Assembly: GCF_037042905.1 (NCBI RefSeq)
Contig: NC_087251.1
Coordinates: forward strand, 17,610,001 to 17,674,000
Origin: Lytechinus pictus
Lineage: Eukaryota
Direction of reading: 5' to 3'
DNA length: 64,000 nt
Positions within the stretch are counted from its first letter, which is position 1. Every line of letters begins with the position of its first letter. The notes below the pieces were generated by a model that searched no databases, was not told where the DNA came from, and saw only the letters and a program-made list of their open reading frames with translations. The position numbers and the translations under genes were made by a program. Shown here one piece after another: positions 20,096 through 24,381 of the stretch.

Positions 20096-23000
20096 TATGA
20101 GGCGCCGAATGTACCAATATTATATAGAACAATTATTTGTTATATAATCATTATTTATTAAATAATAACTATTATTTATATATAATTTACATTTTATTTG
20201 TAAATAACTACTATTATATAAAATATCATTTCTAATTATTTATATATAATTCCAAGTAATACTTCATTATTTGTAAATAATAATAGTTCGACATTCCATT
20301 ATTTATAAATAATGATTATTTGTTTTTCATTATTTATAAATAATGATTATTTGTTTTTCATTATTTATAAATAATGATTATTTGTTTTTCATTATTTACA
20401 AATAATGATTATTTGTTTTTCATTATTTATAAATAATGATTATTTGTTTTTCATTATTTATAAATAATGATTATTTGTTTTTCATTATTTACAAATAATG
20501 ATAATTTTTTTTTTCATTATTTATAAATAATGATTATTTGTTTTTCATTATTTATAAATAATTTGTTGAGTTTTCCATTATTTATAAATAATGATTATTT
20601 GTTAAATAATGAAAACGTCTACTTCATTATTTATAAATAATTTTTTCGAGTGCACCATTATTCTCATTATTTATAAATAATCATTATTTAATGTTCGAGT
20701 TTTCCATTATTTATAAATAAAGATTATTTGTTAAATAATGAAATATCTACTTCATTATTTATAAATAATAATTTTGTTTCAATATCCCATTATTTATAAA
20801 TAATCATTATTTATAAACAATTTTAACAGTTTGCAATTATATACAAATAATAATTATTTATATACAAATAACCATTATTTATTAAATAATGCCATTATTT
20901 ATTAAATAATGCCATTATTTATTAAATAATGAAAAACTCGCTATAACATGCAAATGTGGGACCGCCCATGATATGAATATTCATGATGCGATTTCCTTTT
21001 TCGTGATTTTTCTTCAAAATTTTTTGTCCATTTCCTCTTCATAATGACATTTCTTGAAGCAATTTTCTAGGGATATGGTCTGATTGTAATATTCTTCATT
21101 TTCTATATAACTTCGTCTTCGTAGAAATATCAAAAAGTGTAATTTTATACGATTTTTCCTACAGTTCACAATCCCCATAGGCGCGCGTGTATCGTAGGGA
21201 CAACCGGTGAATCGACGGAGTGCTCTTCATCGAAATACTACGTTGGTTGGTCCCCGGAAGTGGCGGGCGGAATTTAGCCCGAATCCTCGATGGAAGTCGA
21301 TCAAGTGCATATGAGCTGAGAGAGTGAAATATCAGTGTACTTGTACAGGCTCTTCTACTTTTTATAAATATTTCTTGTTGCTTTTTTTGTTAAGTTAATT
21401 TTTCCTGGTGTAGAGATAGTTTCAGTTCTAATAATGCACTTCAAATACATTTTGGAGTGTCTGTTTGAGGCGTTTGGGGCGATTTCACCCTGGCCCCAAA
21501 ATGCTCGCAACGACAATACGGGGGCATGATGACCCCTAAATTTTTAAAAACTTATTTTTCTATTGAAAATTATCACAAAATTCACCAAAAGTGTGCACGA
21601 AAGCCTTTGTATTTCACTTTTAAAACTGCAAAAAGTGCCCAAATGACAAGCTTGGTCGCTTCGCTGTGTCGCTTTCAACTTGAGAACGTTTACGCGTCTG
21701 CTTCCCCCCCCCCCCCTCTCCTCCGAAAGAAATTCTGTATACGGCCATGCTCTAAAGAGCCTGGCACATTGATTTATGTATACTTTCATTTTCATTATTT
21801 TTATCTCATTATCAACATGGCCTTACGCAGAATTTTTTCCAGGGGGGCCGGGGCCGGAGCATGACGCGCGTAAACTTTCTCAAAAAAATCTTGAAAGCGA
21901 GACAGCCACGGGACCAAGCCCAAATGACAAGCTTGGTCGCTTCGCTGTCTCGCTTTCAACTTGAGAAAGTTTACGCGTCTGCTCCCCCCCCCCCCCCTCC
22001 TCCGAAAGAAATTCTGTATACGGCCATGCTCTAAAGAGCCTGGCACATTGATTTATGTATACTTCATTTTCATTATTTTTATCTCATTATCATCATGGCC
22101 TTACGCAGAATTTTTTCCGGGGGGGGGGGGGTGGGGGAGCAGGACGCGCGTAAACTTTCTCATAAAAATCTTTCTCAAAAAAGCGACCAAGCTTGTCATT
22201 TGAGCTTGGTCGCGTCGCTGTCTCGCTTTCAAGATTTTTTTGAGAAACTTTACGCGCGTCCTAGCTGCTACCCCCCCCCCCCCCCCCCGGTAAAAATTCT
22301 GTGTAAGGCCATGATGATAATGTGATAAAAATAATGAAAATGAAAAGTACATATAAATCAATGTGCCATATGCTCTTTTGAGCATGGCCGTTCACAGAAT
22401 TTCTTTCGGGGGGTGGGGGCAGACGCGCGTAAACGTTCTCAAGTTGAAAGCGAGACAGCGAAGCGACCAAGCTTGTCATTTGGGCTTGGTCCCGTGGCTG
22501 TCTCGCTTTCAAGATTTTTTTGAGAAAGTTTACGCGAGTCATGCTCCGGCCCCGGCCCCCCTGGAAGAAATTCTGCGTAAGGCCATGTTGATAATGAGAT
22601 AAAAGTAATGAAAATTAAAGTATACATAAATCAATGTGCCATGCTCTTTAGAGCATGGCCGTATACAGAATTTCTTTCGGAGGGGGGGGGGGGGCCGGAA
22701 GCAGACGCGTAAACGTTCTCAAGTTGAAAGCGACACAGCGAAGCGACCAAGCAATTGTCATTTGGGCACTTTTTGCAGTTTTAAAAGTGAAATACAAAGG
22801 CTTTCGTGCACACTTTTGGTGAATTTTGTGATAATTTTCAATAGAAAAATAAGTTTTTAAAAATTTAGGGGTCATCATGCATGCCCCCGTATTGTCGTTG
22901 CGAGCATTTTGGGGCCAGGGTGAAATCGCCCCAAACGCCTCAAACAGACACTCCAAAATGTATTTGAAGTGCATTATTACTATTATTAGAACTGAAACTT

Positions 23001-24381
23001 ATCTCTACACCAGGAAAAATTAACTTAACAAAAAAAGCAACAAGAAATATTTATAAAAAGTAGAAGGGCCTGTACAAGTACACTGATATTTCACTCTCTC
23101 AGCTCATATGCACTTGATCGACTTCCATCGAGGATTCGGGCTAAATTCCGCCCGCCACTTCCGGGGACCAACCAACGTAGTATTTCGATGAAGAGCACTC
23201 CGTCGATTCACCGGTTGTCCCTACGATACACGCGCGCCTATGGGGATTGTGAACTGTAGGAAAAATCGTATAAAATTACACTTTTTGATATTTCTACGAA
23301 GACGAAGTTATATAGAAAATGAAGAATATTACAATCAGACCATATCCCTAGAAAATTGCTTCAAGAAATGTCATTATGAAGAGGAAATGGACAAAAAAAT
23401 TTGAAGAAAAATCACGAAAAAGGAAATCGCATCATGAATATTCATATCATGGGCGGTCCCACATTTGCATGTTATAGCGAGTTTTCCATTATTTAATAAA
23501 TAATGGCATTATTTAATAAATAATGGCATTATTTAATAAATAATGGTTATTTGTATATAAATAATTATTATTTGTATATAATGGCAAACTGTAAAAATTG
23601 TTTATAAATAATGATTATTTACAAATAATGGGATATTGAAACAAAATTATTATTTATAAATAATGAAGTAGATATTTCATTATTTAACAAATAATCTTTA
23701 TTTATAAATAATGGAAAACTCGAACATTAAATAATGATTATTTATAAATAATGAGAATAATGGTGCACTCGAAAAAATTATTTATAAATAATGAAGTAGA
23801 CGTTTTCATTATTTAACAAATAATCATTATTTATAAATAATGAAAAACAAATAATCATTATTTATAAATAATGAAAAACAAATAATCATCATTTATAAAT
23901 AATGAAAAACAAATAATCATTATTTATAAATAATGAAAAACAAATAATCATTATTTATAAATAATGAAAAAAAAATTATCATTATTTATAAATAATGAAA
24001 AACAAATAATCATTATTTGTAAATAATGAAAAACAAATAATCATTATTTATAAATAATAAAAAACAAATAATCATTATTTATGAATAATGAAAAACAAAT
24101 AATTATTTGTAAATAATGAAAAACAAATAATCATTATTTATAAATAATGAAAAACAAATAATCATTATTTATAAATAATGGAATGTCGAACTATTATTAT
24201 TTACAAATAATGAAGTATTACTTGGAATTATATATAAATAATTAGAAATGATATTTTATATAATAGTAGTTATTTACAAATAAAATGTAAATTATATATA
24301 AATAATAGTTATTATTTAATAAATAATGATTATATAACAAATAATTGTTCTATATAATATTGGTACATTCGGCGCCTCATA
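20096..24381. mobile_element. 4.3-kb foldback (palindromic) non-autonomous transposon, IS3EU-like
   Basis: GTTTTA|TATGAGGCGCCGAATGTACCAATA ... TATTGGTACATTCGGCGCCTCATA|GTTTTA. The ~2.1-kb arms are near-identical reverse complements with the centre at ~22200. Confidence 0.88.

Follow-up and report, generated by a model that had tools for sequence, protein, structure and literature searches.

In a 64,000-nt window of the Lytechinus pictus genome (contig NC_087251.1, positions 17,610,001 to 17,674,000; coordinates below are those of this window), the segment 20096-24381 is best explained, and in our judgement rather likely to be explained correctly, as a non-autonomous fold-back DNA transposon with IS3EU/GingerRoot-type ends. 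That it is a real transposon insertion is almost certain, and its assignment to the IS3EU type is probable. A preliminary description, made from the letters alone, had called the segment a young, near-perfect palindromic transposon with IS3EU-type ends.

The palindrome, its ends and its target site

Self-BLAST of the window gave one minus-strand self-match that spans exactly 20096-24381, with 92.6% identity over 4393 columns. Global alignment of the two arms yielded 2044 matches and 38 mismatches, the outermost 264 bp being identical, and the gap letters fell mostly in two additional minisatellite copies and in the centre. The palindrome was thus confirmed over its whole described extent. Its termini are TATGAGGCGCCG..CGGCGCCTCATA (TATGAGG..CCTCATA), the right end being the complement of the left, and perfectly complementary runs of at least 21 bases cover 1781 of the 2102 left-arm bases. 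The terminal 167 bp carried no substitutions between the arms (0%), the 31-bp array 2.65% and the remaining outer part 1.2%; further inward the level was 0.29% in the inner unique part, 1.8% in the first 280-bp unit and 6.8%, together with 10 indels, in the second, arm divergence peaking at the centre. The wording 'near-perfect' therefore suits the arms overall and their identical ends, but not the central units. A young age is likewise favoured by the identical ends and by a CpG observed/expected ratio of 0.9-1.5 in the element vs 0.55 in the flank, and is disfavoured by the more diverged centre.

No gene was found in the element, as had been reported: the three stop-to-stop frames of 116-131 codons that overlap it had no meaningful match in Pfam, and the six-frame translation of the inner arm matched nothing there below E 0.065, with no THAP or transposase passenger in the arms by this search. 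The arm sequence had no further matches elsewhere in the window.

The element end was evaluated in public sequencing runs. Of 24 listed runs searched with the arm, 20 hold part of it, under four organism labels and from nine studies, the best share being 0.61; four runs from four studies (X1, X2, X10 and X23) were compared over 18950-20262, which comprises the left flank and the terminal 167 bp. The terminus was present in all four. In X2, a contig that starts at 20096 matches the terminus in all 167 bp; X1 holds a contig with 0 differences and an unrelated 28-nt flank; 18 contigs of X10 enter differing flanks before 20096 (median 255 nt unaligned, agreement 0.43), with a summed depth, not to be read as a copy number, of about 10,000 in the element vs roughly 75-280 in most bins of the flank; and in X23, 15 + 16 RNA reads depart from the element at 20095/20096. 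Because the terminus is joined to many unrelated flanks, 20096 is the real end of a multi-copy family, and the claimed transposon terminus common to many copies is upheld.

Directly outside both ends lies the hexamer GTTTTA, and among junction repeat lengths of 1-11 only 6 gives a match. In the window minus the element and the large GA-rich array, identical 6-mers around TA occurred at 5 of 4740 sites, and 0.05% of random 6-mer pairs match; the 6-bp target-site duplication (TSD) proposed for this copy was therefore corroborated. As a small internal control, two TA-flanked, CAGTG-ended elements of the window have no flanking repeat of at least 4 bp. These elements, presumably Tc1-like, lie at 25608-26856 and 44097-44905, and the second is an 810-bp palindrome.

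With respect to classification, the element combines TAT..ATA termini, the boundary at 20096 recurring in 4/4 runs, with a 6-bp duplication in this copy and with terminal inverted repeats (TIRs) in an interspersed multi-copy family (18 X10 contigs with varied flanks). Mutator-type fold-backs (FB, TU and Tetris, with TSDs of 8-10 bp; for TU we presume 8 bp) were tried and rejected, since lengths 7-11 fail at the junction. IS3EU is described as 'always TA..TA' at its ends, with a TSD usually of 6 bp, and as one lineage with GingerRoot (PMC10045372); the fungal IS3EU end is TAYGG..CCRTA (PMC12730594), GingerRoot copies show TA..TA in 72/77 cases and TIRs of 100-150 bp (PMC6839031), and the group is structurally and functionally little studied (PMC11934779). 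Among the first 14 IS3EU names (25/34 places) in the supplement of PMC10045372, no recognisable echinoderm label occurs. A search with 20 nt of the terminus found no match among viral contigs or prokaryote genomes and a single one among metagenome contigs, which has only those 20 bases in common and was rejected as a chance match.

Several observations weigh against the favoured classification and its evidence. No transposase was found in the element by frames and Pfam, and none is linked to it. The IS3EU assignment first proposed is partly supported, by its TA..TA ends and the 6-bp repeat of this copy. The 6-bp length comes from one copy, the window's own; outside 20096 the flank rows of the runs are mixed consensus letters, and ends cannot be paired for TSDs. 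The 7-mer background is higher than that of 6-mers (22/4739 vs 5/4740), which indicates that local repeats inflate such matches. Finally, X1 and X2 hold the exact terminus but the flank in only 8 and 4 of 30 bins, respectively; these two runs look fragmented or mixed, and contig gaps in runs prove nothing about absence.

As to the insertion itself, no empty-site row stood among the rows displayed, beside which 76 further rows exist. X10 holds the flank in 27/30 bins as two versions that lie 3.3-5.3% from the window, yet at 20226 28/28 of its contigs differ from the window, which suggests, without showing it, that X10 lacks this insertion. One X10 contig, with 50 nt on its shorter side and a depth of 70, connects 20145 with 20262 in opposite strand orientation and is possibly a much shorter palindromic family member.

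Other explanations were weighed against the fold-back transposon with IS3EU/GingerRoot-type ends. If the element were a fold-back of a TA-duplicating superfamily (Tc1/mariner or PHIS), its ends would be TGAGG..CCTCA, its TSD would be TA and GTTTTA would be coincidental; all copies would then have TA at 20096-20097, a boundary that fits both models, and the flank is AT-rich. Such a reading requires a chance 6-bp repeat (5/4740, 0.1%), and the TA-flanked elements of the window start with CAGTG, not TGAGG, which leaves it very unlikely. The same ends and 6-bp TSD could also have been moved by another enzyme group (Polinton, Ginger2/TDD or an undescribed one), to which we give a low probability. 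The termini here are TAT..ATA, not AG..CT, the presumed ends of Polinton/Maverick, on which that candidate was rejected, nor TG..CA. Polintons, Ginger2/TDD and long terminal repeat (LTR) elements do make 6-bp TSDs (PMC6839031).

Two further alternatives concern the assembly. Ends and insertion might be true and the centre misassembled, a unique middle or a longer 280-bp array having been collapsed or mis-joined, or the arms over-polished. The centre and the right junction are not covered by reads, which counts against the palindrome as assembled; moreover, many arm differences lie in C and G runs, 6/7 small right-arm insertions make 4-bp palindromes, and the terminus in the window is identical in every letter to the majority contig of X1 and X2. 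A clean mis-join between repeats would account neither for the templated duplication of 11 nt at the junction nor for the variants specific to single units that lie to either side, and the probability of this explanation is accordingly small. That the entire palindrome is a read fold-back artefact would agree with its near-zero spacer and with the lack of any spanning read among those seen. Against this, the preliminary description had invoked the small indels. These are present (additional segments of 9 bp and 4 bp in the right arm, and 11 copies of the 31-bp repeat on the left vs 13 on the right), yet the argument is weak alone because unpolished repeats carry such errors. More weight attaches to where the palindrome ends, precisely at a family terminus that was confirmed independently and is bordered by a 6-bp direct repeat; with the exact end found in 4 independent runs and the return to unique sequence, the artefact is exceedingly improbable and we reject it.

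The central junction and the RNA of the family

In each 280-bp unit a spacer of about 67 bp separates half A from half B, two inverted copies that are 75-84% alike; where a B half adjoins the next A half, the two form a short stem with a 10-11-nt loop. The right arm, read on the minus strand, has the order A-spacer-B-loop-A-spacer-B-loop and then continues for 12 nt into a third A half, like an ordinary unit boundary. At about 22181 it switches to a B half of the opposite arm with a 2-nt overlap and an 11-nt duplication, 22170-22180 being a copy of 22155-22165-type sequence. We therefore think it quite likely that the centre formed by a strand switch at inverted half-units, with its own strand or a second copy as template. 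In yeast, fold-back priming has been shown to occur at inverted repeats that are short and imperfect (PMC10622511), and for Galileo it has been proposed that one TIR is copied, together with internal sequence, to the opposite end, with TIR1-F1-F1-TIR2 copies (PMC3573991).

The divergence of the units is a difficulty for a single fold-back copy, which predicts identical inner units; instead, divergence is greatest in these units. In half A and spacer, units 1 and 2 of the left arm agree at 96-100%, and the right inner unit is 85-88% identical to them. Later conversion in the left arm or a second, diverged template is therefore needed. For the central 231 nt, folding as DNA gave -99 kcal/mol (z -20), a value that only restates the symmetry. 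Rfam gave 2 weak miRNA-precursor matches at the centre (63.7 of 230 and 25.4 of 88 bits), far below gathering, which are read as reflecting the hairpin shape only; a bacterial promoter scan stayed at chance level and is not relevant. Among right-arm-only insertions of 2-4 nt (21523-22140 and mirror), 6/7 create 4-bp palindromes, where about 1.4-1.7 would be expected (P about 0.001 in a post hoc test). Two of them could derive from an inverted half-unit, with hairpin opening and consensus error as alternatives.

A possible course of events can be outlined. An integrase-like DDE transposase supplied in trans would insert the element, cutting the target with a 6-bp stagger. The element itself would consist of two head-to-head copies of a single end of some longer progenitor, and that end would have borne a tandem array of 280-bp units, each an imperfect palindrome. 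A 3′-end that had broken or stalled after 12 nt of a new unit may have annealed to the adjoining inverted half or to the array of another copy, slipped once (giving the 11-nt duplication) and copied back out to the terminus, which would leave two usable ends and no middle. Later conversion between and within arms would have reshuffled the units. In a copy lying inside a host transcript, the arms would pair into a long RNA duplex that could be edited by ADAR.

Evidence from family RNA came from run X23, which consists of ribo-depleted paired RNA reads; the 52 reads compared come from about 6% of the run. Changes of A>G or T>C made up 48/59 changed places in this run vs 24/76 in the DNA run X10 (Fisher P 6e-9), and 48/55 vs 24/50 when changes from A or T only were counted (P 2e-5). 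At 20112, T>C was carried by 13/21 first-mate-plus vs 0/12 first-mate-minus reads, and at 20189, A>G by 0/7 first-mate-plus vs 8/8 first-mate-minus reads, a strand split that fits adenosine-to-inosine (A-to-I) editing if the first mate is antisense. Both variants occur in none of three DNA runs, and both candidate edited adenosines have a 5′ U, the neighbour favoured by ADAR (PMC9989829). Furthermore, X23 reads cross the terminus on both strands, as expected for read-through transcripts that enter or leave copies. Editing of young repeats is general in animals, and 86% of sites in sea urchin lie in repeats (PMC9989829). Taken together, the RNA of the family is probably edited.

This editing-like pattern supports, without proving it, that the family gives rise to duplex RNA, and it fits the suggestion that the element is a source of hairpin RNA; no read could be assigned to this copy. 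The following observations speak against editing, or against arm pairing as its source. The comparison DNA is not from the organism label or individual of X23; only two A>G/T>C sites were displayed with strand; and the changed places are not independent, some reads coming from long interspersed nuclear element (LINE) paralogues. In addition, 33/52 X23 reads fall below 90% identity and not one attains 99%, so that they may stem from diverged copies, and all 8 reads at 20189 carry at least 6 other differences. Sense-antisense pairing or local hairpins could also be the source of editing without any pairing of the arms. Worms and human cells are described as having a splicing system that paired TIRs trigger (PMC12779559). 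In X23, no RNA joint was listed over 18950-20262, a stretch that could not show one across the element.

If the IS3EU assignment is true, a third enzyme lineage, beside Mutator and P, would have fold-back architecture, and the element would provide a base-level record of palindrome formation. It would further demonstrate that an animal genome can harbour a 4.3-kb palindrome that has hardly any spacer, and would single out a specific long-duplex RNA substrate in a sea urchin used in the laboratory. Current views are not overturned, as fold-backs, TIR extension and editing of young repeats are already known. In the literature searched, which had Repbase and most subscription papers outside it, no description of an all-TIR IS3EU element appeared, and absence is thus not proven. 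A far-reaching conjecture, which we hold to be a long shot, is that Lytechinus IS3EU-type transposons routinely capture self-inverted repeats and, through strand switching at these, turn one end into a self-contained palindrome of several kilobases that is still mobile, and that arms with inward CpG-rich promoters could yield, at any site of insertion, a self-transcribed 2-kb hairpin, ADAR-edited or processed into small RNA, that feeds back on the family. The exact end variant of this copy is missing from X10, the one run with the orthologous flank, and is exact in X1 and X2, which bear two other organism labels; introgression or horizontal transfer that brought in the subfamily recently would fit this, as a lead only.

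Annotated features and surrounding sequence

Table 1. Features of the palindromic element and its flanks (window coordinates; a point marks features without strand).
Feature	Position	Strand	Remarks
Left flank, decayed LINE-like sequence and tail	19250..20089	+	no library match
Left GTTTTA direct repeat	20090..20095	+	candidate TSD
Whole palindromic element, 4286 bp	20096..24381	.	no coding capacity found; self-match, arm alignment, frames, Pfam
Left terminal 167 bp	20096..20262	+	starts TATGAGGCGCCG; identical to right end, family terminus; alignment, run data
31-bp minisatellite, 11 copies	20263..20603	+	built on an 18-bp perfect palindrome
AT-rich outer remainder	20604..20937	+	degenerate palindromic-motif copies, 129-bp and 20-bp repeats; mirror about 23481-23814
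Inner unique domain, ~700 bp	20938..21636	+	0.29% between-arm difference; mirror about 22768-23480
CpG-rich patch within inner unique domain	21150-21330
Left-arm 280-bp units	21637..22180	+	half A, spacer, half B; A/B inverted copies, 75-84% alike
Centre	22170..22213	.	junction about 22180/22181; duplication 22170-22180; 10-bp stem 22183-22192/22204-22213 with 11-nt loop
Right-arm 280-bp units	22181..22767	-	innermost most diverged, 85-88% to others (A half and spacer)
31-bp minisatellite, 13 copies	23815..24214	-
Right terminal 167 bp	24215..24381	-	arm alignment
Right GTTTTA direct repeat	24382..24387	+

The 31-bp minisatellite may supply extra transposase-binding sites, and the inner domain contains what we take to be putative ETS-like (21254-21262) and octamer-like (20948-20955) motifs.

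The preliminary description had placed the insertion in a LINE 3′ region. This is plausible from decayed motifs in the left flank, which we take to be reverse-transcriptase-like, and from coverage indicating that the flank is partly multi-copy in three runs; searches of the left flank found nothing in Pfam (3/3 frames) or in PDB (one frame). The element lies 6.4 kb beyond the stop codon of an opsin-5-like gene (2821-13653) that has at least four exons and a long C-terminal tail; its exon at 12880-13653 encodes 258 aa that are 100% identical to an opsin-5-like protein of Lytechinus pictus and 62% identical to a Strongylocentrotus protein.

The window is dense in other inverted-repeat elements. 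A 7.6-kb element at 46620-54221 has inverted arms of about 1.7 kb that are 83% alike, TAG..CTA ends, TTG on both sides and internal repeats of 177 bp and roughly 385 bp, and presumably fits an Academ-type fold-back. A related pair resembling miniature inverted-repeat transposable elements (about 550-590 bp, G-rich ends, opposite orientation, 79% alike) occupies 14537-15082 and 18318-18906, and elements of several further types lie at 7069-7673, 28600-30882, 39173-39733, 42712-42877 and 62120-63580. A purine-rich 49-bp minisatellite recurs at 24616-24910 and 34110-36230, the second array being 2.1 kb long with a GC skew of 0.83, and a complex tandem array with periods of 106-376 bp is found at 56335-57185. 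An ankyrin-like exon at 58456-58788 on the minus strand has a weak Pfam match (E 0.09).

Relation to known systems

The element resembles IS3EU and GingerRoot in its TA..TA termini and 6-bp flanking duplication (PMC10045372, PMC6839031, PMC12730594, PMC11934779), and also in its marine invertebrate host and in a size within the 3.9-12.9 kb of GingerRoot. It differs in that its ~2.1-kb arms make up the whole element, whereas TIRs measure 100-150 bp in GingerRoot and over 30 bp in fungal IS3EU; unlike these, it has modular tandem repeats and no transposase, and its end is TATGAGG, not the fungal TAYGG.

In architecture it is a fold-back, with long modular inverted arms, internal tandem repeats and no coding sequence. 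Non-autonomous elements with modular inverted arms composed of tandem-repeat and unique domains include Tetris, FB and the sea urchin TU (PMC4079207). Fold-backs have been known from sea urchin since 1983, as cited in the same paper, and their architecture is said to arise independently through transposase loss and TIR elongation, mostly in Mutator. Tetris, which is placed with Mutator, differs by its 8-10-bp TSDs (PMC4079207), and the present element has no middle domain.

The RNA pattern is similar to animal A-to-I hyper-editing, in which A>G changes appear on the transcribed strand with a 5′ U and young DNA transposons are among the most editable sequences (PMC9989829); here it concerns the terminus of one fold-back family in a single unmatched run. 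The proposed formation of the palindrome has its counterpart in Galileo 2T/2RT of Drosophila, which shares long repetitive TIRs, an unequal repeat number between arms, TIR extension by inverted copying of internal sequence, and the longest TIRs in non-autonomous copies (PMC3573991). Galileo, in turn, belongs to the P superfamily and has 7-bp TSDs and TIRs of up to 1.26 kb, in contrast to the 6-bp duplication and the 2.1-kb arms without a spacer described here.

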